DNA of 64,000 bases from Vicinamibacterales bacterium (GTDB lineage: Bacteria > Acidobacteriota > Vicinamibacteria > Vicinamibacterales > 2-12-FULL-66-21): positions 23,555 to 87,554 of the forward strand of contig DATJKH010000029.1 in assembly GCA_035491715.1 (NCBI GenBank), in the 5' to 3' direction. Of this stretch, positions 3,200-48,277 are shown one piece after another. Both the position numbers and the translations under genes were made by a program. Each line of letters begins with the position of its first letter. Positions within the stretch are counted from its first letter, which is position 1. The notes beneath the pieces are model-generated. The model searched no databases. It was not told the origin of the DNA and saw only the letters and a list, made by a program, of their open reading frames with translations.

Positions 3200-3345
3200 C
3201 GGCCATTCACCGTCGCGCTGAGACGAACCCGCGTTTAACGCGAAGGTACGAAGAATCGAGTGCTTCGACTCTTCGCGCCTTCGACGCAAGCCGTCGGCAC
3301 GTGTAGGACGCCTGTAGTAGCGTGTTTGGCGTAAGATACGCGGTC

Positions 3346-5559: not shown

Positions 5560-5574
5560 ATTCGAGTATTCACG

Positions 5575-6708
5575 ATGCGCTTTTCGATTGCGATCATGTT
5601 GCTGATGACGATGGGCGCGTACGACGCACAGTCCGGTGGCACTCCACAGCGCGGTGTCACCCGCACGCCGTTTGGTAAGACACGCGATGGCAAAACAGTT
5701 GAGATCTACACGCTGACAAACGCACATGGCGTCCAGATGCGGGTCATCACCTACGGCGGCATTATCACCAGTTTGAAGCTGCCCGATCGTTCCGGGCGTC
5801 TCGGCGACATCGTCCTCGGGTTCGACACCCTTGATGGATATCTCAAGGACCCTCCGTACTTCGGGGCAGTCATCGGGCGCTACGGCAATCGCATTGCGAA
5901 AGGGCAGTTCACGCTCGACGGGAAGACGTTCAAGCTGGCGACCAACAACGGACCGAATCACCTGCACGGCGGGGTCAAGGGGTTCGACAAAGTGGTGTGG
6001 AACGCTGTTCCGGGCACCGATGCGAACGGCGTCAGCGTGGCGCTGTCGCGCACCAGCCCCGACGGGGAAGAGGGCTACCCGGGCAATCTCCAGGCAACGG
6101 TGCGCTACACATTGACCGACAAGAACGAACTTGCCATCGACTACCGCGCGACCGCCGACAAGGCAACGCCAGTGAATCTCACGCAGCACAGCTACTTCAA
6201 TCTCGCTGACGATTCGAGCGACATTCTCGGTCACGAGTTGACGATCCGTGCAGGGCGCTACACCCCCGTGGACGCCACGCTCATTCCAACCGGCGAAATG
6301 GCCGCGGTCGAAGGAACGCCATTCGATTTCAGGAAAGCGACGACGATTGGCGCTCGTATTGCCACCGAGAACGCGCAGTTGAAGAACGGCGGTGGATACG
6401 ATCACAACTGGGTGCTCGATCGTAGCGGTGGAGGCCTGCAGCCAGCCGCGCGGCTCGTTGATCCGAAGAGCGGGCGGACACTCGAAGTGGCAACGACGGA
6501 GCCGGGTCTCCAGTTCTATTCCGGAAACTTCCTCGACGGATCGATTAGCGGCAAGGGCGGCCGTGTCTATCGCCATCGTACCGGCCTATCTCTGGAGACG
6601 CAGCACTATCCGGACTCGCCGAATCACTCGAACTTCCCGTCGACGATCCTGAAACCAGGACAGACCTATTCTTCGCAGACCGTATTTGCGTTCGGTGTGC
6701 AGAAGTAG
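5575..6708 (+). CDS. galM: aldose 1-epimerase (galactose mutarotase)
   Basis: Motifs GRYGNRIA, NNGPNHLHGG, HSYFNL and a GalM-like C-terminus. The N-terminus is hydrophobic. Confidence 0.9.
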   Translation: MRFSIAIMLLMTMGAYDAQSGGTPQRGVTRTPFGKTRDGKTVEIYTLTNAHGVQMRVITYGGIITSLKLPDRSGRLGDIVLGFDTLDGYLKDPPYFGAVIGRYGNRIAKGQFTLDGKTFKLATNNGPNHLHGGVKGFDKVVWNAVPGTDANGVSVALSRTSPDGEEGYPGNLQATVRYTLTDKNELAIDYRATADKATPVNLTQHSYFNLADDSSDILGHELTIRAGRYTPVDATLIPTGEMAAVEGTPFDFRKATTIGARIATENAQLKNGGGYDHNWVLDRSGGGLQPAARLVDPKSGRTLEVATTEPGLQFYSGNFLDGSISGKGGRVYRHRTGLSLETQHYPDSPNHSNFPSTILKPGQTYSSQTVFAFGVQK

Positions 6709-6716
6709 CGAGCACT

Positions 6717-8411
6717 ATGAAGCGTGATGTTGCGATCGCGACGATTCTTGTCTCCGTCGCGCTGGCCTCGTGGTCCGGCCTGGCGCAGAACGACACATCA
6801 AAGATCTCCATCCGCGTCGATGCAACGAAGCGGCTCGGGCCGATGACCACCATGTGGGCGTTCTTCGGTCACGATGAGCCCAATTACACCTACATGCCGG
6901 ACGGGCGGAAGCTCCTGTCAGAACTCGCGGCGCTGAGCCCGGTGCCGGTGAATGTTCGAGTCCACAATCTATTAACGACCGGGGATGGAACACCCGCTCT
7001 GAAATGGGGATCGACCAACGCGTACACCGAGGATGCGCAGGGGCGCCCGGTGTACGACTGGACGATTGTCGATCGCATCTTTGATACCTACGTCGAGCGC
7101 AAGATGAAGCCGCTTGTGCAGATTGGCTTCATGCCGAAAGCGCTTTCAACGAAGCCCGAGCCTTACCAGCACAACTGGATGCCCGGCGTTCAGTACAGCC
7201 AGATCTACACAGGGTGGGCCTATCCTCCAGCCGATTATTCGAAGTGGCGAGAATTGGTCTATCAGTGGGCGCGGCACACGGTAGAGCGATACGGCGTCAA
7301 TGAGGTCAAGACCTGGTATTGGGAAGTGTGGAACGAGCCCGACATCGGGTACTGGCAGGGCACGCCGCAGGAATTCCAGAAGCTGTATGACTTCGCAGCC
7401 GACGGCTTGAAGCGGGCACTGCCAGAGGCCAGGATTGGTGGTCCCGAAGTTACGGGGCCAAATGGCGCGCGAACACAGCAGATATTGAAGGATTTCATCG
7501 AGCACTGCCTGCGAGGCACGAACAATGCGACCGGCCAGCGCGGCGCGCCACTTGATTTCGTGACCTTTCACGCCAAAGGCGCTCCACGCGTTGTCGACGG
7601 TCACGTCCGAATGGGCATCAGCAATCAGTTGCGTGCGATCTCGAACGGGTTCCAGATCGTCGCGTCCTATCCTGAGCTTCGAACGACGCCGATTGTGATC
7701 GGCGAGTCGGACCCGGAAGGATGCGCCGCGTGCTCGGTTCGAACCAATCCGGAGAACGCGTATCGCAACGGCACCATGTATTCCAGTTATACCGCGGCGC
7801 AGATCGCGCGCACGTTCGAGTTGGCCGATCTTCATAAGGTCAACCTGCTTGGATCCTTGACGTGGGCATTCGAATTCGAAGGACAACCGATGTTTGCCGG
7901 ATTTCGCGATCTCGCCACGAACGGCATCGACAAGCCGGTGCTCAACGTCTTTCGCATGCTGGGAAAGATGCGCGGCGACAGGGTTGTGGTGACCAGCACC
8001 AGCGCTGCGAATACCGAGACGATCAGAGATTCCGGTGTCCGCGAAGCCGCCGACGTTTATGCGTTGGCCAGCCGAACGGATCGCTCGATGGAGATCCTCG
8101 TGTGGAACTATCACGACGACGATGTGCCGGCGCCGGCTGTCCGGATTGCCCTGACCGCGGAGGGGCTGTCAGGGCGTCAAGCAACGGTCACGGAATACAG
8201 GGTCGACGATCGTCACAGCAACTCGTACGAAGCGTGGAAACAGATGGGATCGCCGCAGACGCTCACGTCTGAGCAACGAAGTGCGCTCGAGAAGGCGGGT
8301 CAACTGCAGACGATGGGATCGCCGGCGCGCAGGAACATTGAGGGCGGTCGTCTCACACTCGACGTGTCGCTGCCGAGACAAGGTGTCGCCCTGTTTACCG
8401 TAACCTTTTAG
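6717..8411 (+). CDS. glycoside hydrolase family 39-like (beta-xylosidase / iduronidase-type), secreted
   Basis: Signal peptide ends ..SGLAQ. The acid/base block WYWEVWNEPD and a candidate nucleophile block VIGESD are present, and the length fits GH39. Confidence 0.7.
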   Translation: MKRDVAIATILVSVALASWSGLAQNDTSKISIRVDATKRLGPMTTMWAFFGHDEPNYTYMPDGRKLLSELAALSPVPVNVRVHNLLTTGDGTPALKWGSTNAYTEDAQGRPVYDWTIVDRIFDTYVERKMKPLVQIGFMPKALSTKPEPYQHNWMPGVQYSQIYTGWAYPPADYSKWRELVYQWARHTVERYGVNEVKTWYWEVWNEPDIGYWQGTPQEFQKLYDFAADGLKRALPEARIGGPEVTGPNGARTQQILKDFIEHCLRGTNNATGQRGAPLDFVTFHAKGAPRVVDGHVRMGISNQLRAISNGFQIVASYPELRTTPIVIGESDPEGCAACSVRTNPENAYRNGTMYSSYTAAQIARTFELADLHKVNLLGSLTWAFEFEGQPMFAGFRDLATNGIDKPVLNVFRMLGKMRGDRVVVTSTSAANTETIRDSGVREAADVYALASRTDRSMEILVWNYHDDDVPAPAVRIALTAEGLSGRQATVTEYRVDDRHSNSYEAWKQMGSPQTLTSEQRSALEKAGQLQTMGSPARRNIEGGRLTLDVSLPRQGVALFTVTF

Positions 8412-8431: not shown

Positions 8432-10861
8432 TTACTCGATCCGCAACGCAATAATCGGATCGATCCTCCCCGCGCGCAGCGCCGGCCACACGCACGCCTG
8501 AAGACCCGCGGCGAGAAGCACCACGGCCACGAGGGCGAACGCGATTGGGTCAAACGGCGACACGTTCCAAACCTGCCGCGCCAACAGACGCGCGCCAATC
8601 AGGCTCCCGGCCAGACCGATGGCCATGCCGATGAGCAGCAGGCGCGAACCGCGCGCAAGGATCATCGCAACGATTGATTTTGAACTCGCTCCGAGGGCCA
8701 TCCGTACGCCAATCTCCTGACGCTGCTGGGCGACCGCCGTCGCCATCACCCCGTAGACACCGATGACGGCGAGCACCAGTCCGATGAGCGCAAAAGCGGA
8801 AAGCAGGATCAGATTGAAACGCGGTGTCGAGAAGGCATCTTCCTTGAGCACAGTGTCCAGGGTCTTGACGTTCGTCACAGGTTGACTGCCATCGATTGCA
8901 TAGATCTGCGCCATGATTGGGCGCGTCAACGATGTTGGTTCAAGAGTCGTTCGCACGATGAGGACGTTCGAGGCACCGGTCAAAGAGTAAGGGAAGTAGA
9001 TTTCCGGCCTGGTTGGATTCGCGAGTCCGTCATTGGCGATGTCCTGGACGACGCCTACGACCTCGAAGGCATCGCTGGCGAGCTCAAATGGTCGCTCTTT
9101 GAGGCGTGGAAGATGGATGATCTGCCCGAGTGGGGGTCGTCCTTCGAAGCGCGCGCGGACGAACTGCTCGTTCACCACCGCAACCGCGCGCCGGCTCGTC
9201 ACGTCGGTTTGATCGATTGCCCGCCCGGACGCGAGGCGAATACCGAGAGCAGGCGTATAACCCGCATCGATCTGATGGACGACGACGGGGTCGGTGCTTG
9301 CCGCCGTGCCAGCGACGTCCGCCGTTGTCGACATGTTGCCGAGCGGGTGAAGCCACGTGTTCACTCCGGCCTCGGCGACACCGGGCACGATTCTCACTCT
9401 CGACAGCAGATCTTCAAAAAATGCAACCCGTCGAGTGGCGTCCGGGTATCGCTGCGGCGGCAGCGGAATGCGCATCGTCAAAAAGCGCTCCGGCTGATAT
9501 CCGAGATCAACGCGCGCCATTGCGACAAACGTGCGAATGAGCAGACTCGATCCCGCCAGCAGCATGAGCGAGAGCGCGACCTCGACGACGACGAGCGACT
9601 TTCGAAGCCGCGCTTGTCCCGAACTTCCTGACAGCGATCGACTGACTTCGCGCATCGAGGCCGCAAGATCCCGCCGTGAGCTGTGCAGCGCGGGCGCGAG
9701 GCCGCAGATGATGCTCGTCATCGCGCAAATGGCCAGCGTGAAGAAGAGCACCGATCGATTCAACGCAATCTCGGCCTCATCCGGGATCGTGTTTGGCGGC
9801 ACGATCGCGAGGATTGCTGGAAGTCCGGCATACGCGAGAGCGGATCCGATGGCGCCGGCAATCAGCGCAAGCAGCAGGCTTTCAGTGAGGAGCTGCCGCA
9901 CGAGGCGGCTGCGGCTTGCGCCGAGGGCAACGCGCACGCCCATTTCTTTCTGCCGCGCGGCCGCCTTCGACAAGAGCAGATTCGAGACGTTAGCGCAGGC
10001 GATGAGCAGGAGGAACGCGACAGCACCAAAGAGCACCCAGATGTCGCCGGTGATTCCGCTTGGGAATGTCTCAGTGAAGGGCAGCAGACTGACGCGAAAC
10101 TGTTGCGGAAACTCGTTCGGCTGCCGTTTTTTGAGATCCTCGATGATTGGTGCCAGGTCTGCCTCGGCCCGCGCGCCGGTAATTCCAGGTTTGAGCCGCC
10201 CGAGCAGGTGAACGTTGCGTACGCCTTCCACGATCTGTCCGCGCTGAAATCGTGTCGGGATGTAGACGTCCGCGCCGCGCCACATGAATCGCTTCGGCAT
10301 CACTCCAATGACGGTTCGAACGGTGTCGTTCAAACGCAGTTGCCGTCCAAGCACTCCTCGGTCGCCGCCGAACTGCCGCTGCCAGAAGCGATAGCCCAAC
10401 ACAACCACCGGGTCCGCACCCTCCTTCGCATCGTCCGCGCCTGGCGTTCGTCCGAGCAGCGGCGGCACACCCATGACGTCGAAGGTGTTGAATGTGCCGT
10501 GGTTCCCGCGCAGCCGTTGCGGGTCGCCCTCACCGGTCCACAGCACGTCACTGATGGTTGACGCGATTGTTCCTTCGAAAATCGTGTTGCGTTCTGCGAT
10601 CTCGAGGAACTGGTCGACCGAGTAGCCGAGTCGCCCGCCCCGTCCAGCGGGGTTGTAGACGCGCACGCTCATCAACTCGCCGACGTTCTTGTATGGGAAT
10701 GGATCGAGGACGACAGCATGGAGGACGCTGTAGATGGCCGTCGTCGCCATGATTCCAGTGGCCAGCGACAGGATGGCGAGCGCAGTAAAGCCGGGACTCT
10801 TCAGAAGGCTCCGTGTGCCGTACTGAATATCCCGTGCGAACGTTTCCACCCAGGTTCCCAT
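8432..10861 (-). CDS. ADOP-family duplicated MacB/FtsX-like permease (orphan, no adjacent ATPase)
   Basis: The N-terminus ..DIQYGTRSLLKSPGFTALAILSLATGI is typical. There are two MacB-periplasmic plus FtsX-like 4-TM halves, and the protein is 809 aa. Confidence 0.85.
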   Translation of the reverse strand: MGTWVETFARDIQYGTRSLLKSPGFTALAILSLATGIMATTAIYSVLHAVVLDPFPYKNVGELMSVRVYNPAGRGGRLGYSVDQFLEIAERNTIFEGTIASTISDVLWTGEGDPQRLRGNHGTFNTFDVMGVPPLLGRTPGADDAKEGADPVVVLGYRFWQRQFGGDRGVLGRQLRLNDTVRTVIGVMPKRFMWRGADVYIPTRFQRGQIVEGVRNVHLLGRLKPGITGARAEADLAPIIEDLKKRQPNEFPQQFRVSLLPFTETFPSGITGDIWVLFGAVAFLLLIACANVSNLLLSKAAARQKEMGVRVALGASRSRLVRQLLTESLLLALIAGAIGSALAYAGLPAILAIVPPNTIPDEAEIALNRSVLFFTLAICAMTSIICGLAPALHSSRRDLAASMREVSRSLSGSSGQARLRKSLVVVEVALSLMLLAGSSLLIRTFVAMARVDLGYQPERFLTMRIPLPPQRYPDATRRVAFFEDLLSRVRIVPGVAEAGVNTWLHPLGNMSTTADVAGTAASTDPVVVHQIDAGYTPALGIRLASGRAIDQTDVTSRRAVAVVNEQFVRARFEGRPPLGQIIHLPRLKERPFELASDAFEVVGVVQDIANDGLANPTRPEIYFPYSLTGASNVLIVRTTLEPTSLTRPIMAQIYAIDGSQPVTNVKTLDTVLKEDAFSTPRFNLILLSAFALIGLVLAVIGVYGVMATAVAQQRQEIGVRMALGASSKSIVAMILARGSRLLLIGMAIGLAGSLIGARLLARQVWNVSPFDPIAFALVAVVLLAAGLQACVWPALRAGRIDPIIALRIE

Positions 10862-29948: not shown

Positions 29949-29980
29949 TTCCTGAATGTTGAGTGACTGTTGAAAGGCTC

Positions 29981-30904
29981 ATGAACCGTCGCGAATTTAT
30001 TGCTGTCGCGGGTGTGCCGTTCGCCACCCGCGTTCTCTCTCGAGCGACCGCGCAGCGGCCGCGCACGAGGCTCATTCTCCTGGGCACGGGCGGTGGTCCG
30101 ACACCCAAGAAATCGGTCTCCGCTTCGGCGCAGGTGATCATCGTCGCCGACGCGGCATATGTGGTCGATTGTGGTGACGGAGTCGCGCGTCAACTGGTTG
30201 CGGCGGATGTGCCGCTGCGCAACCTGAAGCACATCTTCATCACGCACCATCATTCCGATCACAACGCCGACTACGGCAACTTGTTGCTGCTGTCCTGGGC
30301 GACCGGCTTAGCCACCGGCGTCGGTACGTGGGGTCCACCGCCGTTGACGAAGATGACCGAGCTGTTTCTGGCGATGAATGCGTACGACATCGATATCCGC
30401 ATTCGCGACGAAGGCCGGGTTCCGCTCGCTCCGCTGGTTGTGCCGCATGAGGTGTCGCAGGCCGGCGTCGTGATGCAGGACGACAACGTCAAAGTCACTT
30501 CGACCCTGGTCGACCATCCGCTGGTCGCGCCGGCGTTGGCGTACCGATTCGACGGACCCGACCGATCGATCGTCATTTCCGGCGACACGGCTCGGTCTGA
30601 CAATCTCGTGAAGCTCGCTCGAGGTGCCGACATCCTGGTTCATGAAGCCCTGTGGTTGCCGGCGGTTGAGCGAATCATCGCGCGCGATCTGAATGCTTCT
30701 CGGCTCAGGGAGCATCTGCTTGCCAGCCACACCACTGTCGAGGACTGCGGTCGTGTGGCCGAAGCCGCGGGCGTGAAGACACTGGTCCTCTCGCACCTCG
30801 TGCCAGGCGGCGACCCGACGATCACCGACGAGATGTGGACGAACGCGGCGCGCCAGCACTTCAAAGGGCGCATCATCGTCGGCAAGGACTTGATGGAGAT
30901 CTGA
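29981..30904 (+). CDS. MBL-fold metallo-hydrolase with twin-arginine signal
   Basis: Tat motif MNRREFIAVAG and metal motif THHHSDH. Confidence 0.8.
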   Translation: MNRREFIAVAGVPFATRVLSRATAQRPRTRLILLGTGGGPTPKKSVSASAQVIIVADAAYVVDCGDGVARQLVAADVPLRNLKHIFITHHHSDHNADYGNLLLLSWATGLATGVGTWGPPPLTKMTELFLAMNAYDIDIRIRDEGRVPLAPLVVPHEVSQAGVVMQDDNVKVTSTLVDHPLVAPALAYRFDGPDRSIVISGDTARSDNLVKLARGADILVHEALWLPAVERIIARDLNASRLREHLLASHTTVEDCGRVAEAAGVKTLVLSHLVPGGDPTITDEMWTNAARQHFKGRIIVGKDLMEI

Positions 30905-33661: not shown

Positions 33662-34275
33662 TCAAGGTTGCGCCAGTCACGCTCGAAGGTAACGGCATGC
33701 GGCTGGAACCGCTGTCGCCCGATCATACCCAGGCGCTTCAGACGGCTGTGGAGGACGGCCGTCTCTGGGAATTGTGGTACACGAGAGTTCCCGAACCGAA
33801 AGGAGTCGCGGAGTACATCGCCGCGGCGCTTGCCGGTCAGGAGGCAGGACACATGCTTGCCTGGGCCGTGCGCGAACTTGCCACCGGGACCATCATCGGA
33901 AGTACGCGCTACCACGACATCCTGGCCGACATCGATCGGGTCGAGATCGGGTATACGTTCTACGCGAAGCGATGGCAGCGCACGCACGTGAACACGGTGT
34001 GTAAGCTGCTGCTCTTCGAACACGCATTCGATCGTCTGGGCTGTCGGGTCGTAGGGCTGCGGACTGACAACTTCAACTTCACATCACAACGGGCGATTGA
34101 GCGGCTCGGTGCAAGAAAGGACGGAGTCATCAGGCACTACGGTGCGCGTCGTGACGGCAGCGTCCGCGATACCGTGATTTACAGTGTGCTGGCCCATGAG
34201 TGGCCGGACGTGAGGCGGCATCTCGAATTGAAGCTGAAGCGGGCAGTTGTACCGGTGGAGGGCATCGGGCGATGA
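33658..34275 (+). CDS. GNAT-family N-acetyltransferase (RimJ/RimL-like)
   Basis: LEPLSPDH start, the block RWQRTHVNT and the C-terminal NFTSQRAIERLGA are present. The GTG start overlaps the carbonic anhydrase stop (GTGA). Confidence 0.75.
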   Translation: MIKVAPVTLEGNGMRLEPLSPDHTQALQTAVEDGRLWELWYTRVPEPKGVAEYIAAALAGQEAGHMLAWAVRELATGTIIGSTRYHDILADIDRVEIGYTFYAKRWQRTHVNTVCKLLLFEHAFDRLGCRVVGLRTDNFNFTSQRAIERLGARKDGVIRHYGARRDGSVRDTVIYSVLAHEWPDVRRHLELKLKRAVVPVEGIGR

Positions 34276-35336
34276 CCGATCGCGCACGAACTTACCGCGT
34301 CGCGCTCTATCCCGGCGATGGCATCGGTCCGGAAGTTACCGATGCGGCCGTCACTGTTCTCGCGGCGGCAAAAGATAAACACCAACCCTTCGATCTCGAG
34401 TTCGCACGTTTCGATTGGGGCATTCCGCATTTCGAGAAGCATGGACGTGTGGCTCCCGAAGACTTTCTCTCCACCCTGCGCGGCTTCGATGCGATTTTTC
34501 TCGGCGCCGTCGGCTGGCCGGCCCGGCTGCCCGATCACATCACCCTCACGCCGTTGATTCGTTTGCGTCAAGCGTTCGATCTCTATGCCTGCGTGCGCCC
34601 GGCGCGAACGTTCGACGGTGTCCGCGGCCCGCTCCGTCGCGAGGAGCCGATCGATCTGGTTGTCGTTCGCGAGAACTCTGAAGGCGAGTACGTCGACAAC
34701 GGTGGCGCCCTCGCGGTCAACACGCCACATGAAGTGGCGTTGCAGACGGCTGTTCACACTCGGCGCGGCGTTGAACGGATCCTGCGTTTTTCGTTCGAGC
34801 TTGCGCGCACACGGCGACGGCGGCTCGCGATGATCACCAAGTCGAACGCACAGCGCTACGCGTATGTGCTGTGGGATCGACTGCTTGTCGAGATCGCGGC
34901 GCAGTTCGAAGACGTCGCGGTCGAGAAGTTGCACATCGACGCGGCGACGCTCGAATTGGTCCGTCGGCCGCACACCTTCGACGTCGTCGTCGGATCGAAT
35001 CTCTTTGGCGACATTCTCAGCGACCTGACCGGCGGTATCACCGGAAGCCTGGGGTTGAATCCGTCGGCGAATCTGAATCCTGAACGCCGATTCCCCTCGC
35101 TGTTCGAGCCGGTGCATGGATCGGCGCCAGATATTGCGGGAAAGGGGATCGCGAATCCAACCGCCGCGGTCTTGAGTGCCGCGATGATGCTTGACTGGTT
35201 GGGGGAGGCGGCCGCAGCAACAGATGTGCGTGCCGCAGTCGAGCGCGCGCTCGCCGCGGGCAACCTGACACCGGATGTCGGCGGCGCCTTAACCACGACG
35301 CAAATGACAGAGGCAATTGTGCGGCAGCTCGAATGA
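34272..35336 (+). CDS. tartrate dehydrogenase/decarboxylase-like member of the isocitrate/isopropylmalate dehydrogenase family
   Basis: The blocks YPGDGIGPEV, FDWG, VRENSEGEY, TKSNAQR and PERRFPSLFEPVHGSAPDIAGKGIANP closely follow my recollection of TtuC-type enzymes. The ATG overlaps the upstream stop (ATGA). Confidence 0.75.
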   Translation: MTDRARTYRVALYPGDGIGPEVTDAAVTVLAAAKDKHQPFDLEFARFDWGIPHFEKHGRVAPEDFLSTLRGFDAIFLGAVGWPARLPDHITLTPLIRLRQAFDLYACVRPARTFDGVRGPLRREEPIDLVVVRENSEGEYVDNGGALAVNTPHEVALQTAVHTRRGVERILRFSFELARTRRRRLAMITKSNAQRYAYVLWDRLLVEIAAQFEDVAVEKLHIDAATLELVRRPHTFDVVVGSNLFGDILSDLTGGITGSLGLNPSANLNPERRFPSLFEPVHGSAPDIAGKGIANPTAAVLSAAMMLDWLGEAAAATDVRAAVERALAAGNLTPDVGGALTTTQMTEAIVRQLE

Positions 35337-36817
35337 TTGCCGGTGTGCCAGATCAGCGTGACGTCACCGCTCGTCGACCGGCGCGGATCTGGCGCATCGG
35401 AATCCCCGTCATCGTCGGAGCCGTCTGGGCCTTGCTCCCGGCGCCCGCCGGGCTCGAGCCATTCGCCTGGGGCTATCTCGCACTGTTTGTCGCGACGATA
35501 CTGGCGCTGATTACCGAACCCTTCCCTCCGGCCTCGATCGGCCTCGTTGCCGTCACGATCGGCGGAGCATTCGGACTTGTCTTCTCTCCATCGCAACTGG
35601 CTGATCCGTCTTTCAAGTTTCCGGCCGAGGCGCTGAAGTGGGCCCTGTCAGGATTCATCAACAGCACGGTCTGGCTGATTTTCAGCGCCTTCGTGTTCGC
35701 CATGGGATATGAGAAGACCGGGCTCGGCAGGCGCATCGCCTTAGTGCTCGTGAGATTGCTCGGCGGAAACACACTCGGACTCGGCTACGCGATCGCTGTG
35801 TCGGATCTTGTTCTTGCTCCATTCACGCCGTCGAACACGGCGCGAAGCGCCGGGACAATTTTCCCGATCATCAACAGGATTCCGGAGCTTTACGGATCGA
35901 GCCCCGGCGAATCGTCACGCCGAATCGGCGCTTACTTGATGTGGGTTGCCTTCTCGACCACGTGCCTGACGAGTTCGATGTTCCTGACGGCGCTGGCGCC
36001 AAATCTCTTTGCCGTCGAACTCGCTCGCAAGGCTGCCGGTATCGATCTCACATGGACCGACTGGCTCATAGGATTTCTTCCCATCGGCGCACCGCTCTTT
36101 CTCGCGCTGCCATGGCTCGTCTACAAAATCTATCCGCCGGAGATTCGAAGCAGTGTCGAAGTGCCGCGATGGGCGGCGCAGGAGCTCGCCAACCTTGGTG
36201 GAATCACGTTCAACGAGATCATTATGGCGACCCTTGCCGTTGCCGCGCTGGCGCTCTGGATCGGCGGTGGCCGCGTGATCGATCCGGCGATGGTGGCGCT
36301 GGCAGGAATCTCACTGATGGTTGTGCTGTCGCTCGTGTCATGGGACGACATCGTCGGCAACCGGACCGGCTGGAACGTCCTGGTTTCGTTTGCCACGATG
36401 CTGACGATGGCCGAGGGGCTGGCGAAGACCGGCGTCATCGATTGGCTGGGCGGCACGGTTTCGACGGTTCTTTCGGGCCTTGCGCCGCTCGTCGTGATGA
36501 CGCTGCTTGTCGTGCTCTTCTTTCTGGTGCACTACATGTTCGCGAGCCTCACGGCGCACGCGACCGCATTGCTCCCCGTGATGCTCGCGACCGGTACCGC
36601 CGTCGAGGGTGTTCCCGCTCGCACGTTCGTCATGCTGATGGTGTTTTCGTTAGGTGTGATGGGTGTGTTGACGCCGTACGCGACCGGCCCGGCGCCGGTG
36701 TATTTCGGCAGCGGCTACATTCCGCGTCGCGACTTCTGGCGGCTCGGCTTGATCTTCGGATTGATTTTCCTTGCGTCGTTGCTCGTCATCGGCGGCGTGA
36801 CGCTTCCGCGGATCTGA
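35333..36817 (+). CDS. DASS-family (divalent anion:Na+ symporter / TtdT-like) di/tricarboxylate transporter
   Basis: The hairpin-tip motif PSNTARSAGTIFPI is present. The protein is polytopic and 494 aa long. The ATG overlaps the upstream stop. Confidence 0.8.
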   Translation: MIAGVPDQRDVTARRPARIWRIGIPVIVGAVWALLPAPAGLEPFAWGYLALFVATILALITEPFPPASIGLVAVTIGGAFGLVFSPSQLADPSFKFPAEALKWALSGFINSTVWLIFSAFVFAMGYEKTGLGRRIALVLVRLLGGNTLGLGYAIAVSDLVLAPFTPSNTARSAGTIFPIINRIPELYGSSPGESSRRIGAYLMWVAFSTTCLTSSMFLTALAPNLFAVELARKAAGIDLTWTDWLIGFLPIGAPLFLALPWLVYKIYPPEIRSSVEVPRWAAQELANLGGITFNEIIMATLAVAALALWIGGGRVIDPAMVALAGISLMVVLSLVSWDDIVGNRTGWNVLVSFATMLTMAEGLAKTGVIDWLGGTVSTVLSGLAPLVVMTLLVVLFFLVHYMFASLTAHATALLPVMLATGTAVEGVPARTFVMLMVFSLGVMGVLTPYATGPAPVYFGSGYIPRRDFWRLGLIFGLIFLASLLVIGGVTLPRI

Positions 36818-40435: not shown

Positions 40436-41158
40436 TCAGATCCTCCCAAACTGCTTCACCGCTTCCTTGATCGAGCGGTACTTCTCGATGAAGGGGAGCA
40501 TCCGATGCTCGGTGTCGTCGAGTTCCTGCGATTTTTTGAGCACTTCTGGTGCCCGGCCAATCGGGACGACAGCGACGCCGTCCTCGTCGGCGGTGATGAT
40601 GTCGCCGGGATTGACGCGCACGCCGGCGCACGTGACGGCGACGTTCACACCGGTGACACGGTAGTGGTTGATCGTCGTTGACGGCGCGACGCCGCGACTG
40701 AAGACCGGGAACTGCAGCTTCCGGATCTGCGGCGTGTCGCGCACGGAGGCGTCGATCACGGCACCGGCAAAGCCGCGGTATTTCATTGCGGTCGCCATCA
40801 GCCCGCCGATGCCGGCATAGTCGGCACCATCCTCGAGCACCATGACGTAGACCGATCCGGCTGGCGAGTTATCGATCGCGTCGAGCATGCCCTGAGAGGC
40901 GGCCGATCCCTCTTTGTGTTCTTCTTTCTTCAACTGCACCGTTACAGCCGGTCCGGCAAATTTCGTCGCCGACAGCGGCCGCATGTCGTGCGCCATGTAG
41001 GCGCGTTGCCCATACAACTGCTCCATCGCGTCTGCAACGGACGCGACTTCGACGGTGCGGAAGCCGTCCACGAGCGAGACTTCGGCAGGCGGTTGCGCCA
41101 TCACCCATGCGGCGCTGACCAGCGCGCCGATACCTACAAAAAAAACTACCCTTTTCAT
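40436..41158 (-). CDS. RraA / HMG-aldolase-family protein with Sec-type signal peptide
   Basis: Signal peptide MKRVVFFVGIGALVSAAWVMAQ. The RraA-like core includes GGLMA and VxPGDxIxADxDGV (VNPGDIITADEDGVAVV). Confidence 0.7.
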   Translation of the reverse strand: MKRVVFFVGIGALVSAAWVMAQPPAEVSLVDGFRTVEVASVADAMEQLYGQRAYMAHDMRPLSATKFAGPAVTVQLKKEEHKEGSAASQGMLDAIDNSPAGSVYVMVLEDGADYAGIGGLMATAMKYRGFAGAVIDASVRDTPQIRKLQFPVFSRGVAPSTTINHYRVTGVNVAVTCAGVRVNPGDIITADEDGVAVVPIGRAPEVLKKSQELDDTEHRMLPFIEKYRSIKEAVKQFGRI

Positions 41159-41200
41159 TCTGTGCCTCGTATCCGTGTGTGTCCGTGTTCATCCGTGGCT

Positions 41201-42109
41201 TTATTTGTAGTTCTTCCGGACTTCTTCCAGTCGTTTCTTCAAGTACTCCTCGTATTCCTTCTTGAGCGCCGGGTCCTTCGGTGTGCTGTAGATATCACTC
41301 GACTTGTACTTTCCTTCGTCGAATTTCTTGCGCGTCCACTCGTCGTGGATGTGGACGATGTCGGCGTTGTCGACCACTTGCTGCACGAGGACGGGAGGGA
41401 TGAAATAGACACCTTCCGAGTCGCCAAACACCAGATCTCCCGGCATCACGGTGGCGCTGCCGATGCGGACGGGAATGTTGATGCCGCTGATGACGACGTT
41501 GGTCAGAAAACTCGGATGGGTTTTGCGGAAATAGGCCGGCATGTCCATCGCGGAGATGCCATCCAGATCCCGGATCGCGCCATCCACGACCAGCCCGCCG
41601 CCCTTGGTCGCCTTCATGATGTAGTAGAAGAGGTTGTCACCGACGATCGTTCCGCCGTCTCCCTGACCGAACAGATCGACGACGAGCACGTCTCCAGGCT
41701 GCAGCATGTCGATCGCGGTTTGATTGTTCATCCGATCCAGTCCCGCGGCCTTGGCGCGCGCCGTGATGACGCCGTCAAGATCCGGCCGCAGCGGCATGAA
41801 CTGCACGGTGAAGGCTCGTCCGACGAGCCTCTTCTCCGGATGCAGTATCTGAAATCCATCGGCCCACTGATTGCGAAAGTTCTTGGCCGGCAGGATTGCG
41901 AACACTTCTTCCGCCGAGAGTCCGCGCGCGCGTTCGATTAAGCCGTCGGGAACTTTGGGGCGCCCGTCAGGGAAGCGATCGAACGGGTTCTGCGCCGTCA
42001 GCTCGATCATTTGATCTCTGCTCAGCGTGAACAGCTGCGCCTGCGAGAGCGCGGGTGCCAGCAGTGCACTGAGCGCTGCCACGATCGCAAAGCGAATTCG
42101 ACATGTCAT
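41201..42109 (-). CDS. RraA / HMG-aldolase-family protein with Sec-type signal peptide (second copy)
   Basis: The internal ATG 42109 gives the signal peptide MTCRIRFAIVAALSALLAPALSQAQ. The core includes VMPGDLVFGDSEGVYFIP. Confidence 0.65.
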   Translation of the reverse strand: MTCRIRFAIVAALSALLAPALSQAQLFTLSRDQMIELTAQNPFDRFPDGRPKVPDGLIERARGLSAEEVFAILPAKNFRNQWADGFQILHPEKRLVGRAFTVQFMPLRPDLDGVITARAKAAGLDRMNNQTAIDMLQPGDVLVVDLFGQGDGGTIVGDNLFYYIMKATKGGGLVVDGAIRDLDGISAMDMPAYFRKTHPSFLTNVVISGINIPVRIGSATVMPGDLVFGDSEGVYFIPPVLVQQVVDNADIVHIHDEWTRKKFDEGKYKSSDIYSTPKDPALKKEYEEYLKKRLEEVRKNYK

Positions 42110-42126
42110 AAGCGACCCCTCACCAG

Positions 42127-43500
42127 CTAGGACCACTGCCGATCCGACGTCCGGTCGGTGTTCCATTCCGGCGTCGGCAGGAAGTAACCCGGTTCGAGAA
42201 GATGCTGTTTCACCGCGGCTTCATTCAGCGTGATTCCGAGGCCTGGCTTGTCGGGAACCGTGATGAACCCCTTGTTGACGATCGGCTTTTCAATTCCGTC
42301 CACGAGGTCTCCCCACCAGGGCACGTCGACCGAGTGATTCTCGAGCGCGAGGAAGTTCTCCGTCGCCGCGGCGCAGTGAACATTGGCCATGCACGACACT
42401 GGTGTGCCTGCGAAGTGCATCGCCATGGCCACACCATACTCCTGGGCCGTGTCGCCAATTTTCTTCGTCTCCAGGATGCCGCCGGATGTGGCGAGATCAG
42501 GGTGAATGATGTCGACCGCGTGTGTGCGACACAGTTCGATGAACGGCTCTTTCAGGTAGATGTCTTCGCCGGTGAGGACCGGAATGTCGACCGCATCGGT
42601 GATCTTCTTCAGGAGATCCGTGTATGGCCACGGGACCATGTCCTCGAGCCACGCCAGGTTGTATTTCTCGAGCCCCTTGCCAAGACGGATACAGCTGTTG
42701 ACGCCGATGTGGCCGAAATGATCGGCGCACAGGGGAATATCCATCCCGACAATCTCGCGGATCGCGGCGACGTAGTCGCACATCAACGCGACACCTTTGT
42801 CGGTGATCTCGGTTCCCGTCAACATCCCGACGGTCGGATCGCCATACGCCAGGCTCGTCCCCGCCGGCATCGTCAATGCGCCGGGAACGTCGGCGACGAG
42901 ATCGATACCCAGGTCCATCTTGAGCCACGTGAACCCCTGATCCCGGCGGGCTTTCAGGCGCTGACCATACACTTTTGGATCGTGCGACTCGGTCGTGTCG
43001 GCGTAGCAGCGAACCTTGTCGCGAAATTTTCCCCCGAGCATTTGATACACGGGCACGTTATAGGCCTTGCCGGCGAGATCCCACAGCGCCATTTCCACCC
43101 CGCACACGCCGCCGCCTTGACGCGAATGCGATCCGAACTGCTTGATACGCCGGAACAGCTTGTCGACATTGCAGGGATTCTGGCCGAGCAGGCGGCTCTT
43201 CAACATCAACGCATAGTTCTTACTTGCGCCGTCGCGCACCTCGCCGAGTCCGTAGATGCCCTGATTCGTGTCGATTCGAATGATCGGGCACGTCATCGGC
43301 GCGCCGCCAATCACCGCGACACGAAGATCAGTGATCTTCAGATCGGATGGCTTCGAGTTGGTGTTGATGTTCTGTGCGAGCGCGTCGATCGGATCTGGCG
43401 GTGCCGCTCGAGCGGACCGTGTCAGCGATCCCACACCAAGTGCCGCGACGGTGCTCTTGAGGAACGACCGCCTTGCGTCAATTGTGCGATCTGGTGCCAT
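42127..43500 (-). CDS. enolase-superfamily (mandelate racemase / acid-sugar dehydratase-like) enzyme with twin-arginine signal
   Basis: Tat motif ARRSFLKSTVAALGVG. Enolase-superfamily blocks include GLGEV, EMALWDLAGK and PVYQMLGG, with metal-ligand regions (WLKMD, LAWLED, GED). AGGAGG lies upstream of the ATG. Confidence 0.8.
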   Translation of the reverse strand: MAPDRTIDARRSFLKSTVAALGVGSLTRSARAAPPDPIDALAQNINTNSKPSDLKITDLRVAVIGGAPMTCPIIRIDTNQGIYGLGEVRDGASKNYALMLKSRLLGQNPCNVDKLFRRIKQFGSHSRQGGGVCGVEMALWDLAGKAYNVPVYQMLGGKFRDKVRCYADTTESHDPKVYGQRLKARRDQGFTWLKMDLGIDLVADVPGALTMPAGTSLAYGDPTVGMLTGTEITDKGVALMCDYVAAIREIVGMDIPLCADHFGHIGVNSCIRLGKGLEKYNLAWLEDMVPWPYTDLLKKITDAVDIPVLTGEDIYLKEPFIELCRTHAVDIIHPDLATSGGILETKKIGDTAQEYGVAMAMHFAGTPVSCMANVHCAAATENFLALENHSVDVPWWGDLVDGIEKPIVNKGFITVPDKPGLGITLNEAAVKQHLLEPGYFLPTPEWNTDRTSDRQWS

Positions 43501-43602
43501 GGGGAGCCTCCTGTTCGCGTTTCTGACTGCGCGTGGGGTCCTACCCCCCCACGCGCTCTCGCTCGGCGACTTCGCGCCTCGCTCGGGCCGCGGCGGTTGC
43601 CC

Positions 43603-44739
43603 TTAAGAAGCGAGCGCCGCCTGCATCATGGCGCGCGTGTAGCCGACGTTGAACGCATAGCCGGCGTATCCGCCGCCGCCCGGATACTGCGGTTTGAAAT
43701 TCGGGCGTTCGCGGTCGTAGTCGATCCCGCGCGGGTGCTCCGGATACACCAGGCGGGTGTATTTCTGCCGCACCAATTCCTTCATCACCGAAAACATGTC
43801 ATTTTCGCCTTCGTCGATGAAGACCTCGGTATAGCGTTCGTAAACCTTCTGCACTTTGACGTTCCGGAAATGGACGTGATTGATCCGGTCCCTCGACCCG
43901 AACCACCGGCACACTTCCACGGGATCGCCGCCCATCTCCCGCGTGACGCCACAGTCGAACGTGATCCCATTGGATGGCGAGTTCACGATGCCGACGAGCT
44001 TCTTCCATCCGTCGATAGTTGCCATGATTTGTTGTGAACCACGGCTGATCGGAGCTGGCGGATCGTTCGGATGTAGCGCGAGACGTACTCCGGCCTTCTC
44101 AGCTTCGGGCACGATTGCTTTCAGGAAGTACGTGATGTTGCTCCACATCGCGTCAAGCGAGTGCGCCCCCTCCTGGTCGAGCGGCGGAAGCCCCTTCATT
44201 CGCTCGTAGTCGAATCCGGTCCAGCCCGTACCCGCGCGGCCGGTCTCTTCGAAATAGCCTTCCATCGCGCGATGCGCATACCAGTTGTATTCCACGACGG
44301 GTAATCCAACACGGCCGGCGGCCTTGATCGACTGGATCACTTTCTCGATATCCGCATCGCGCTCGGGCCGGTTGTAGATCGCGTTGGGAAATCCGGAGAT
44401 CATCAGGTTGGCAAGCGTGAGCCCGTTCGCTTTCAGCCGATCCATCATTTCCTTGAGCCGGGCTTCCTCCCACGGAATGCGTGGTCCGCCAGCGATCACA
44501 TGGTCGACACCGAGTTGGCGGATGCGCCGACCGGCGGCTTCCGCGGCTTCATCAGGCGACGCACCTGCCGGGGCTCCCAGTCCGGCCTCGAGGCAGATCT
44601 TCGGTGTGTCCTTGCCTTCGAAGTGCGGGCGCGTCTGCGCGGCCGCGACGATCGGAGAGGCGCCATACGCGGCCCGCACTCCCAGCGCTGCAGCACCGGC
44701 GGTTTTGAGCAGGGTTCGGCGAGAGGGTTTCGTCGTCAT
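43603..44739 (-). CDS. mannonate-dehydratase-like (UxuA-type) xylose-isomerase-fold TIM-barrel protein with twin-arginine signal
   Basis: Tat motif SRRTLLKTAGAAALGV. The blocks LALHPNDPP and INHVHFRNV resemble UxuA. The subfamily call is tentative. Confidence 0.6.
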   Translation of the reverse strand: MTTKPSRRTLLKTAGAAALGVRAAYGASPIVAAAQTRPHFEGKDTPKICLEAGLGAPAGASPDEAAEAAGRRIRQLGVDHVIAGGPRIPWEEARLKEMMDRLKANGLTLANLMISGFPNAIYNRPERDADIEKVIQSIKAAGRVGLPVVEYNWYAHRAMEGYFEETGRAGTGWTGFDYERMKGLPPLDQEGAHSLDAMWSNITYFLKAIVPEAEKAGVRLALHPNDPPAPISRGSQQIMATIDGWKKLVGIVNSPSNGITFDCGVTREMGGDPVEVCRWFGSRDRINHVHFRNVKVQKVYERYTEVFIDEGENDMFSVMKELVRQKYTRLVYPEHPRGIDYDRERPNFKPQYPGGGGYAGYAFNVGYTRAMMQAALAS

Positions 44740-44791
44740 ATAAGCGGCTTAATACAGTAGCTATCGGCGGCTGTGTCAAGGGGAAATGGTT

Positions 44792-44849
44792 GGGTGCCGA
44801 GAGTGCCAGGAGTGCAAGGAGTGCCAGGAGTGCAGCCGTGCAGCCGTGC
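44792..44849. repeat. short tandem repeat array: about 5 x 9 bp (GAGTGCMAG) followed by 2 x 8 bp (CGTGCAGC)
   Basis: Read directly as GGGTGCCGA GAGTGCCAG GAGTGCAAG GAGTGCCAG GAGTGCAGC CGTGCAGC CGTGC. It lies in the 124-nt divergent intergenic region between 44739 (-) and 44864 (+). Confidence 0.85.
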
Positions 44850-44863
44850 TACATTCCCGGCTC

Positions 44864-46231
<1,368 letters not shown>

Positions 46232-48277
46232 ATGCGCCACACCCTCCTGGCCTTTGTTGCTCTGTCGGTCATGCTCGGGCCGGCCCGGCCGTCGTTCGAT
46301 CAGAGCACGTCACTCGCGCATGTCGAAGTGTCGCGCATGTCGATGGCCTGCCTGTACACCATCGACGCTTACGCGAGGACAAACGAACCGACGCTTCGTG
46401 CCACTCTGGAATCAGCGCTCGACGAAGTCGATCGGATCGATCGGCTGATGAGCCACTACAAACCGGAGAGTCCGCTGTCACGAATCAATCGCGAGGCGGC
46501 ACGTCATCCGGTCGTGGTCGACCCTGAGTTGTTTGGCTTCATCAAACAATCGCTGAAGTACAGCAGTGAGACCGGCGGTGCGTTCGACATCACCGTCGGG
46601 CCGCTGATGAAAGCGTGGGGATTCTTTCGCGGCGAAGGTCACATGACATCCGAAGCGGATCTCGCGAAGGTCATAAAACGCGTGGGGTCTCGTCACGTTG
46701 TGCTCAACGAAGACAAGCAGACGATTCGGTTCGATGTCGAAGGCGTCGAGCTCGATCTCGGCGGGATCGCCAAAGGCTATGCGGTCGATCGCGCCGTCGC
46801 CATTCTACGGGCAAACCACGTCGACGCCGCGCTCGTTAGCGCCGGCGGCAGCACCATCTATGCGCTCGGCGCGCCGCCAGAACGGATCGGCTGGAACGTA
46901 TCCATTCAGGATCCGACTGACGCCAGCAAAGTCGCGCGCGAGGTGACGCTCGTCAATCGTGCGCTGTCGGTGGCGGGTAGTTCCGAGAAATCATTCGAAG
47001 CCAACGGCACGCGCTACTCGCACATCATGGATCCGAGCACGGGAAGGCCGGTGCAAGGCGTGCTCAGCGTCGCCGTGGTGACCAACACCGGAACAAATGG
47101 GGATGCGCTCGACGACGCGCTGTTTGTGCTGGGGCCAACGAAGAGCGCTGAGTATTTAGAACGGCATCCAGGTGCGGAGGCTCTATTTTTTGTTCCTGAC
47201 AGTTCACGTGGGTGGACGCTGGTCGATTTGCAGCGGCAGACTGGCGATTTGGAAGCGTTGCCGTTCGCGCCCAGGCACTACATCGCCTTTCACGCCTCCT
47301 CACCGATTACGATCGACGGCAGACTGGACGATCCGTCGTGGAAGGACGCACCCTGGACGGAGACCTTTGTCGACATCGAAGGCGATCGACGGCCTCAACC
47401 TCGCTTCCGCACACGCGCGAAAATGTTGTGGGACGACAAATGGTTCTACATCGTGGCCGAGATGGAGGAGCCCGACGTGTGGGGTACGCTGACCAGGCGC
47501 GATTCGATCATCTTCCGCGACAACGACTTCGAAGTATTCATCGATCCCGACGGCGATACGCATGCGTATTACGAGCTCGAAGTGAACGCATTAGCGACTC
47601 CGTGGGATCTGATGTTGATCAAGCCATACCGCGACGGTGGCCCGGCGATCCACGCGTGGGACATCGCCGGGCTGCAGGCCCGCGTGGATGTGAAGGGCAG
47701 TCTCAATCGGCCTGGCGATCGCGACGAGGGCTGGACGATCGAGCTGGCGCTGCCCTGGGAGATTCTGAAAGAGGCACAACCAAACACGCGAGTACCACCA
47801 CGGCCGGGCGAGCAATGGCGGATCAATTTTTCCCGCGTCGAATGGCAGACAGAGGTACGCGACGGCGCCTACGTCAAGCGAACGAAACCTGACAGCACTG
47901 ATGCACTCGCGGAGGACAATTGGGTCTGGAGCCCACAGGGCGCCGTCAACATGCACATGCCGGAGCGCTGGGGATACGTCCAATTCACCGAGGCTCCAGT
48001 CAGCCCGTCTGCGTCGTTCGTCGACGATCTGAATGAACGCGTGAAGTGGGCGCTGCGGCGCCTCTACTACCGGCAGCGCGCCTATCGCACTGCGAACGGG
48101 ACTTACGCATCTACGCTTGATGCGCTGAATGCGGCCGACATTCGCGTCGAGGGCATCGCGTTCGCGCCGACGATGCAAACAACCGCCTCCGGCTACGAGA
48201 TCACGGCTCCCGGCTTCGATCGCACGATCGTCCACATCATCAGCGACGGGCGCGTCTGGGTGACGCGGAATCCCTGA
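46232..48277 (+). CDS. ApbE-family FAD:protein FMN transferase fused to a CBM9/DOMON-like domain, secreted
   Basis: The N-terminal half has the ApbE blocks SRINREA, FDITVGPL, DLGGIAKGYAVD and HIMDPSTGRP. The C-terminal half (ITIDGRLDDPSWKDAPW...KMLWDDKWFYI...FEVFIDPDGD..YYELEVN) resembles carbohydrate-binding family 9-like modules. The ATG immediately follows the permease stop (TAGATG). Confidence 0.7.
   Translation: MRHTLLAFVALSVMLGPARPSFDQSTSLAHVEVSRMSMACLYTIDAYARTNEPTLRATLESALDEVDRIDRLMSHYKPESPLSRINREAARHPVVVDPELFGFIKQSLKYSSETGGAFDITVGPLMKAWGFFRGEGHMTSEADLAKVIKRVGSRHVVLNEDKQTIRFDVEGVELDLGGIAKGYAVDRAVAILRANHVDAALVSAGGSTIYALGAPPERIGWNVSIQDPTDASKVAREVTLVNRALSVAGSSEKSFEANGTRYSHIMDPSTGRPVQGVLSVAVVTNTGTNGDALDDALFVLGPTKSAEYLERHPGAEALFFVPDSSRGWTLVDLQRQTGDLEALPFAPRHYIAFHASSPITIDGRLDDPSWKDAPWTETFVDIEGDRRPQPRFRTRAKMLWDDKWFYIVAEMEEPDVWGTLTRRDSIIFRDNDFEVFIDPDGDTHAYYELEVNALATPWDLMLIKPYRDGGPAIHAWDIAGLQARVDVKGSLNRPGDRDEGWTIELALPWEILKEAQPNTRVPPRPGEQWRINFSRVEWQTEVRDGAYVKRTKPDSTDALAEDNWVWSPQGAVNMHMPERWGYVQFTEAPVSPSASFVDDLNERVKWALRRLYYRQRAYRTANGTYASTLDALNAADIRVEGIAFAPTMQTTASGYEITAPGFDRTIVHIISDGRVWVTRNP

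Follow-up and report, generated by a model that had tools for sequence, protein, structure and literature searches.

A four-gene operon of enolase-superfamily, UxuA-like and RraA-like proteins with conserved export signals in Vicinamibacterales: a candidate periplasmic dehydratase and pyruvate-aldolase module

Four minus-strand open reading frames, all running in one direction at positions 40436-44739 of a 64,000-nucleotide stretch of DNA from a soil Vicinamibacterales bacterium (Acidobacteriota; contig DATJKH010000029.1), hereafter the window, form an operon, g1-g2-g3-g4, that encodes a UxuA-like protein, an enolase-superfamily protein and two RraA-like proteins. Textbook sugar-acid catabolism is cytoplasmic; here, judging from conserved N-terminal signals, all four enzymes are very probably exported, g1 and g2 by the twin-arginine translocation (Tat) route and g3 and g4 by the Sec route. 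The best explanation in our view, and one to which we give slightly better than an even chance, is that the operon specifies a periplasmic module of dehydratases and a pyruvate aldolase acting on imported sugar acids; for the dehydratase-aldolase route as such, predicted from the protein families, the chances seem evenly balanced.

The sequence-only reading from which this work started had quoted SRRTLLK in g1, ARRSFLK in g2 and Sec peptides in g3 and g4, and the N-termini do read in this way (Table 1). Tat signals were recognised by the pattern S/T-R-R-x-F-L-K, a weakly hydrophobic core and conservation, and Sec signals by a basic n-region, a hydrophobic core not shorter than 10 residues, small side chains at -3/-1 and conservation, as judged on a heuristic scale. 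Conservation was counted in 120 database homologues each for g1, g2 and g4. The motif RRSFLK is kept in 115 of the 120 g2 homologues (the best matches, 78-94% identical), with n- and h-regions around it that differ freely from one protein to the next, and S-R-R-x-L-L-K is kept in 87/120 g1 homologues; the remaining 33 start at or just past the residues that follow RR, mostly at Met, and look like truncated gene calls. All g1 orthologues of the fetched diderm loci keep the Tat motif, and the Pfam TAT_signal match of g1 itself lies below threshold (17.2 vs 22.7 bits). For g4, a hydrophobic N-terminus ending in W(L/V)MAQ is present in 116/120 homologues and likewise in the orthologues at the fetched loci; the g3-like genes that adjoin g2 orthologues nearly all encode a classical Sec signal, and one encodes a lipoprotein signal.

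The same pattern extends over several phyla. A scan of one genome per species gave more than 570 relatives of g2, of which the best 80 were examined. Counted over the enolase-superfamily genes of these 80 species-representative loci, the RR motif is found in 51/51 from Acidobacteriota, 35/36 from Bacteroidota and 3/3 from Planctomycetota, in none of the three enolases of a Chloroflexi locus, and not in the single one (0/1) of a locus labelled Acidimicrobiia. Tat signal cores are in general less hydrophobic than Sec cores, an established difference, and the two predicted classes differ accordingly, with median core hydrophobicities of 1.75 for Tat and 2.68 for Sec signals (Mann-Whitney p = 7e-21). 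The earlier proposals of an export signal on every product, and of Tat for the metal-dependent barrel enzymes with Sec for the RraA homologues, are thus borne out at the level of prediction, by conservation over hundreds of homologues and by the same split in relatives.

It could be argued that the N-terminal stretches are not working signals, being either wrong starts or vestigial, and that the pathway is an ordinary cytoplasmic one; g1 has no Shine-Dalgarno sequence, and the signals are predicted from sequence. This reading is largely refuted by the comparative data and appears to us very improbable. A start-codon error is argued against because the motifs are kept in homologues while the surrounding residues vary, and in g2 a start at the first downstream Met (M69) would remove conserved residues of the capping domain. 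Moreover, signals are absent only from the copies labelled Chloroflexi and Acidimicrobiia, and the Tat and Sec hydrophobicity classes separate cleanly. Among the 50%-identity representatives of the long RraA family, to which g3 belongs, 33 of the 48 full-length proteins have a signal, and the N-terminus of the signal-less ones coincides with the motif just after the predicted cleavage site in the exported ones. As far as orthologue comparison goes, the conserved N-terminal signals are not start-codon artefacts, and the refutation that the sequence-only reading had itself foreseen, namely true starts lying downstream of the signals, finds no footing.

Some further observations concern export signals more generally. 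Bacteroidota orthologues of g2 (loci L063, L068, L069, L071 and L072, with enolase starts at ~7900-8050) carry a conserved stretch of 25-40 residues ahead of the twin arginines, which reads M.PSQKFLE.LGLKDP..., or MKSIL.QII.ANK... in Adhaeribacter, and which may serve, as part of the Tat signal, in chaperone binding or in regulation. Elsewhere in the window, a metallo-beta-lactamase-fold protein with the twin-arginine motif MNRREFIAVAG... (29963-30904, plus strand) is a further candidate Tat substrate. At 3322-8411 (plus strand), genes for a glycoside hydrolase of family GH2, an aldose 1-epimerase and a GH39 enzyme follow in a row, all with hydrophobic, signal-like N-termini by inspection; this epimerase would be another usually cytoplasmic sugar enzyme exported in the same genome.

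The family assignments of the sequence-only reading agree with Pfam, NCBIfam and structure alignments. For g1, the match to PF03786 (UxuA; 2.8e-42, 145.2 bits against a cut-off of 23.7) has its best stretch in residues 192-348 only, and PF01261 (AP_endonuc_2) is also matched. The C-terminal half aligns to the UxuA structures 3BAN and 1TZ9 and the N-terminal half only marginally; in this alignment HPNDPP, HFRNV and PEHPR of g1 fall on HPDDPP, HTRNV and PDHGR of 3BAN, so that the patterns HPxDPP, HxRNV and P[DE]HxR are kept. The score against the UxuA equivalog TIGR00695 is 88.7 bits, below its cut-off of 199.55. The g2 protein has both the capping and the barrel domain of the enolase superfamily (PF02746 MR_MLE_N, 8.7e-11; PF13378 MR_MLE_C, 9.5e-48), and its best family matches are acid-sugar dehydratases: galactonate dehydratase (GalD), the best NCBIfam match with 194.9 bits against a cut-off of 311, gluconate/galactonate dehydratase, and ManD, with 147.7 bits against an equivalog cut-off of 550. 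Active-site positions of g2 were assigned by alignment to 2QQ6 and 2OX4, its nearest entries in the Protein Data Bank (PDB), both of which are only generically named. The metal carboxylates D260, E286 and E312 and the dyad D335/H362 are invariant in 18 homologues and kept in a 98-sequence alignment. The clade to which g2 belongs has the signature D-H-[FYLW]-G-H (D-H-F-G-H in g2, with Phe at +2), as against D/E-x-H in the nearest PDB relatives; Tat-bearing enolase paralogues at the same loci have HDVHER or DMHGR, motifs that we take to be ManD-like and GalD-like, respectively. On these alignments g2 is best described as part of a new subgroup of acid-sugar-dehydratase-like enzymes defined by D-H-[FYLW]-G-H.

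Both g3 and g4 match PF03737 (RraA-like; 5.9e-27 and 3e-39, respectively), and neither reaches the LigK equivalog cut-offs. Database names for the enolase-superfamily, UxuA-like and RraA-like proteins alike are generic, a protein identical to g4 being called 'RraA family protein'. In the g3 family, G157, R180 and D181 are invariant and D158 is conserved to at least 80% (59 relatives), and in alignment the Arg-Asp pair and the G-D motif fall on the catalytic and metal-site residues of HMG/CHA aldolase. The g4 protein aligns to the HMG/CHA aldolase 3NOJ, where its R139-D140, kept in orthologues, matches the RD pair Arg123-Asp124; at the position of the G-D of 3NOJ, g4 has G-G, as do 112/120 of its homologues. 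Fusions in the long RraA family join RraA to a DUF1080 (3-keto-disaccharide hydrolase) domain or to a glucuronoyl-esterase/AXE-like domain (P0293, P0281). Four further apparent fusions (P0308, P0317, P0322 and P0342) were given little weight, since they share one N-terminus with differing C-termini and are maybe assembly chimeras.

The RraA-like proteins might instead be non-enzymatic, and bind to or regulate the exported barrel enzymes much as RraA does with RNase E. Such a role would fit the nearest structure to g3, 5X15, which is deposited as a 'putative transferase' and which we take to be the Streptomyces protein RraAS2, an RNase inhibitor; it would also fit the tight 1:1 pairing of the RraA gene with the enolase gene and the loss of one metal-site Asp in g4. 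We nevertheless hold it to be improbable: the Arg-Asp pair and the G-D motif show little or no variation among 59 divergent relatives of g3, the fusions to carbohydrate-related domains suggest an enzymatic role, and the partners, with their different predicted export routes, therefore could not travel as a complex.

A survey of related genomes for the signal-bearing four-gene set had been proposed, and the set does recur. Locus L089 has it in a different order, namely TonB-dependent receptor, PF06516 protein, enolase, RraA301, RraA240 and UxuA433, in which the four enzymes are 49-75% identical to those of the window and all have signals. The unit that is conserved is however the enolase and long-RraA pair. 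Of the 64 loci with enough flank, 41 have a g3-type gene and the enolase gene within 500 nt of each other, namely 21/37 from Acidobacteriota, 15/20 from Bacteroidota, 3/3 from Planctomycetota, 1/1 from Verrucomicrobiota and 1/1 from Chloroflexi, and the pair is duplicated as a unit in the Bacteroidota loci L045, L047 and L071. The g1 and g4 genes join it mainly in Acidobacteria (L007, L009, L028). The conserved core, as predicted from these gene orders and N-termini, is a Tat-enolase and Sec long-RraA pair found across phyla; the four-gene set is real and lineage-restricted.

Not every locus follows this plan. In Adhaeribacter aquaticus DSM 16391 (L072, 6118-15602), six tandem Tat-signal enolases, 52-58% identical to g2, stand directly behind SusC-SusD; the fetched part of that locus contains no RraA gene. 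The Chloroflexi locus L078 (5323-14091), from a metagenome-assembled genome, is signal-less and encodes two UxuA-like proteins, a long RraA and three enolases next to a short-chain dehydrogenase, a probable aldo-keto reductase (N-terminus by inspection) and a GFO-family oxidoreductase. With a layout like that of ordinary oxidative sugar catabolism, it is likely a cytoplasmic counterpart of the exported module. In L089, the gene for the PF06516 protein (NUP, 'purine nucleoside permease'; 8882-9916), which has a signal peptide, separates the receptor gene from that of the enolase; this protein was rejected as a conserved partner, L089 being the only fetched locus with it.

In Bacteroidota the typical operon has the co-oriented order SusC-SusD-[RraA-enolase]x1-2-SBF, for example in L071 (Chryseolinea serpens), L069 and L063, with no glycoside hydrolase or lyase inside these operons; SusC was found in 8 loci and SusD in 7. 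A TonB-dependent receptor is near the module in 14 Acidobacteriota loci. The SBF gene encodes an inner-membrane transporter of the bile-acid:sodium-symporter (BASS) type, the closest named family of which is the ketopantoate/pantoate carrier PanS; the substrates of BASS members include pyruvate, glycolate and further 2-oxo and hydroxy acids. The RraA-enolase-SBF layout is seen again in the Planctomycetota locus L050, and an MFS carrier of the D-galactonate-transporter subfamily is near the module in 6 loci, one of them from Bacteroidota. In L043 the enolase gene is followed by genes for two more proteins with Tat signals, a Gfo/Idh/MocA oxidoreductase and an alpha/beta-hydrolase. Hints as to the substrate come from a GH78 rhamnosidase in three loci, a fucosidase beside the acidobacterial copy P0115, and a gluconokinase-like FGGY kinase inside one operon.

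From these data we infer export, a dehydratase/aldolase chemistry, the kind of substrate and the following order of steps. The g1 and g2 proteins would reach the periplasm by Tat, after folding and taking up metal in the cytoplasm, and g3 and g4 would cross the membrane unfolded by Sec; Tat export lets Mg- or Mn-dependent oligomers fold and acquire their metal in the cytoplasm, which would give a rationale for this route in the metal-dependent barrel enzymes. The compounds that enter through outer-membrane TonB-dependent gates would be small acid sugars, or else sugars that Tat-exported Gfo/Idh/MocA enzymes oxidise in the periplasm; the dehydratases would turn them into 2-keto-3-deoxy acids; class II metal-dependent lyases of the RraA type would release pyruvate and an aldehyde from these or, alternatively, decarboxylate a 2-oxo-diacid; and the small 2-oxo-acid product would be taken into the cytoplasm by a BASS, MFS or APC carrier. 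A periplasmic location would be feasible because the dehydratase and lyase steps need no soluble cofactor.

Exported enzymes of these families may however carry out some other chemistry, such as a tartrate-type dehydration to oxaloacetate followed by RraA-type decarboxylation to pyruvate, an epimerase or cycloisomerase reaction, or a reaction on acid residues that are still part of oligosaccharides; we consider this unlikely, though well worth keeping in view. HMG/CHA aldolases double as oxaloacetate decarboxylases, and the NCBIfam name of the family includes that activity; the motif D-H-F-G-H of g2 is non-canonical and the protein reaches none of the equivalog cut-offs; the window has, 4-6 kb off, genes for a tartrate-dehydrogenase-like protein and a DASS carrier; SusC and SusD usually import oligomers; and two different 'dehydratase' folds share one operon. 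Against these points stand the nature of the best family matches of g2, all acid-sugar dehydratases, the ManD-type and GalD-type enolase paralogues at the same loci, and the resemblance of the signal-less Chloroflexi cluster to oxidative sugar catabolism. In addition, the tartrate genes are on the opposite strand, past two unrelated genes.

The periplasmic dehydratase and pyruvate-aldolase explanation has to be weighed against a number of facts that do not favour it. The localisation and the activity of every member are predicted from sequence, and AlphaFold2 models of g1 and g2 built from close-homologue alignments were too poor for use (mean predicted local distance difference test scores of 48.6 and 46.7). 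Both g1 and g2 are far under every curated equivalog cut-off. The sequence-only reading had made conservation of the catalytic residues a test of its proposal, and the result is divided: the metal triad and the dyad of g2 and the R-D and G-D motifs of g3 are kept, but the general-acid histidine of the D-x-H motif of GalD/ManD-type enzymes is Phe in g2, the mechanism of which may thus differ, and g4, having lost G-D, is without an equivalent of Asp102, the residue by which HMG/CHA aldolase holds a metal-bound water. The hints as to the substrate differ in kind. No TonB-dependent receptor, SusC or SusD and no BASS carrier adjoins the operon of the window, which has only an APC-type permease alongside. 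Finally, the release of a reactive aldehyde and of diffusible pyruvate in the periplasm looks wasteful.

The layout of the operon is as the sequence-only reading had described it in coordinates and sequence: four minus-strand genes, gaps of 102, 17 and 42 nt (g1-g2, g2-g3 and g3-g4), a hairpin at about 43529-43556 and an AGGAGG ribosome-binding site. The same four products were picked by gene callers on six metagenome contigs with an identical g2 protein. The window has one copy of the hairpin of the g1-g2 gap, where chance would give 0.01. The hairpin has no T-run and no Rfam match and is missing from the orthologous gaps of L007 and L009, and the folding z-score of the gap is an ordinary -0.6; it was rejected as a regulatory element on these grounds and is a real but unremarkable, minor strain-specific feature. 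Between g1 and the divergent permease, at 44801-44849, lie a tandem 9-mer (GAGTGCCAG, x3.7) and a tandem 8-mer (GTGCAGCC, x2.5), the latter varying in copy number among otherwise identical metagenome contigs. Because this variation is an 8-nt indel between strains, the repeat stretch is non-coding and the permease starts at 44864, and a long upstream open reading frame of the permease is ruled out; the repeats could be an operator or a phase-variable spacer. A promoter-like element, TTGACA-N17-TGTATT (hexamers read from the sequence), is found 11 nt ahead of the g1 ATG, and a strict promoter scan of the region 5' of g1 gave no promoter. If used, the element would give a nearly leaderless g1 transcript, in keeping with the missing Shine-Dalgarno sequence. 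A sigma-54-type promoter in the repeats was rejected, the spacing of TGGCAC-N3-TTGC being wrong.

Table 1. Coordinates of the operon genes, predicted signal peptides and small features, numbered along the window
Feature	Position	Strand	Basis or remark
g1, UxuA-like xylose-isomerase-type TIM-barrel protein, 378 aa	43603..44739	-	Pfam, structure alignment, Tat signal
g1 predicted Tat signal peptide MTTKPSRRTLLKTAGAAALGVRAAYG, about aa 1-26	44662..44739	-	SRRTLLK motif; cleavage site inferred
g2, enolase-superfamily (MR/MLE) protein, 457 aa	42127..43500	-	Pfam, NCBIfam, Tat signal
g2 predicted Tat signal peptide ending ARRSFLKSTVAALGVGSLTRSARA, about aa 1-32	43405..43500	-	ARRSFLK motif; cleavage site inferred
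g3, long-form RraA/HMG-aldolase-like protein, 302 aa from the MTCRIRF start	41201..42109	-	Pfam, Sec signal
g3 predicted Sec signal peptide MTCRIRFAIVAALSALLAPALSQA, cleavage before Q, aa 1-24	42038..42109	-	n-, h-, c-region layout
g4, short RraA/HMG-CHA-aldolase-like protein, 240 aa	40436..41158	-	Pfam, Sec signal
g4 predicted Sec signal peptide MKRVVFFVGIGALVSAAWVMA, cleavage before Q, aa 1-21	41096..41158	-	hydrophobic N-terminus, homologues
Hairpin GCGCGTGGGG/CCCCACGCGC in the 102-nt g1-g2 gap	arms 43529-43538 + 43547-43556	-	10 bp, 100% complementary, 8-nt loop
AGGAGG ribosome-binding site of g2	43507..43512	-	read from sequence, 6 nt 5' of ATG
Divergent intergenic region g1/APC permease, 124 nt, tandem repeats and promoter-like element	44740..44863	.	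repeats, strain comparison

Among the neighbours, a gene adjoining the operon (46232-48277, plus strand) encodes a signal-peptide-bearing fusion of an ApbE flavin-transferase and a CBM9-like domain, and in L007 the four genes have beside them (5769-6683) an ApbE homologue that is 65% identical to the fusion in its ApbE part. The sequence-only reading had mentioned the APC permease and this ApbE fusion; both do adjoin the operon, but as conserved partners they were rejected, recurring only in near-identical contigs and one close relative, and it is the importers and the BASS/MFS carriers that accompany the module instead. At 34200-36817 (plus strand) a tartrate-dehydrogenase-like Iso_dh gene (TIGR02089, 454.5 vs a cut-off of 470.4 bits) is followed by a DASS sodium:anion symporter gene; lying 4-6 kb from the operon, these genes suggest hydroxy-dicarboxylate metabolism nearby.

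A wider proposal can be put forward more tentatively, since we rate it somewhat short of even. The entire cofactor-free lower half of the non-phosphorylative sugar-acid pathway, dehydratase and pyruvate aldolase together, may have shifted to the periplasm in phyla that are abundant in soil, namely Acidobacteriota, Bacteroidota, Planctomycetota and Verrucomicrobiota, with the D-H-[FYLW]-G-H proteins as a new subgroup and a first physiological role for long RraA; varied sugar acids would then come in via TonB-dependent gates, and only pyruvate or a small 2-oxo acid would be taken up, via one BASS-type carrier. If true, models of carbon flow would change for Acidobacteriota and Bacteroidota, which are dominant in many soils, and thousands of genes annotated 'mannonate dehydratase', 'MR/MLE family' or 'RraA family' would be explained. 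A new enolase-superfamily subgroup would be defined, the long RraA family would be given a role, and Mg- or Mn-dependent non-redox enzymes would join the repertoire of Tat substrates. The module is present in cultured organisms, namely Chryseolinea serpens DSM 24574, Adhaeribacter aquaticus DSM 16391 and species of Spirosoma, Larkinella and Telluribacter, which makes the periplasmic route directly testable.

Several known systems can be compared with the operon. The sequence-only reading had known of no characterised example, and a search of the open-access full-text literature likewise gave no exported enolase-superfamily, UxuA-like or RraA-like enzymes. Cytoplasmic routes of the De Ley-Doudoroff/LRA type (GalD, ManD, RhamD, FucD or UxuA, then a pyruvate aldolase) use the same folds and the same logic of dehydration followed by cleavage, and g2 has the metal-ligand triad and the His-Asp dyad in common with them. 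The operon differs from these routes in the export signals on all four enzymes, in the link of the module to outer-membrane importers, in the absence of the D-x-H histidine from g2 and in scores below all equivalog cut-offs; its putative aldolase is moreover of the RraA type, whereas the known cytoplasmic routes use aldolases of the DHDPS/NAL or HpcH type. HMG/CHA aldolase (LigK/ProA, 3NOJ), from the protocatechuate 4,5-cleavage pathway, has the RraA fold and the Arg-Asp pair in common with g3 and g4. It is however a cytoplasmic enzyme of aromatic degradation; g3 has additional N- and C-terminal extensions, and g4 is without its Asp102.

The Bacteroidota module resembles the SusC/SusD polysaccharide utilisation loci in its co-oriented position right after SusC-SusD. 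It differs from them in having no glycoside hydrolase or lyase inside, and the operon of the window has neither SusC/SusD nor a TonB-dependent receptor alongside. Tat-exported sugar enzymes are known in the glucose-fructose oxidoreductase of Zymomonas and in the 3-keto-glycoside systems of Bacteroidota, which combine Gfo/Idh/MocA, xylose-isomerase-like TIM-barrel and DUF1080 proteins. These enzymes likewise travel by Tat, folded and loaded with cofactor or metal, and genes for Tat-signal GFO and DUF1080 proteins occur near the module; they act by oxidation or elimination at glycosides, and to our knowledge none of them involves enolase-superfamily or RraA-type enzymes or yields pyruvate. Taken together, the folds and the reaction types are already known, and what is new is the predicted compartment, the pairing with a putative lyase of the RraA type, the association with importers of the outer membrane and the signature of g2.

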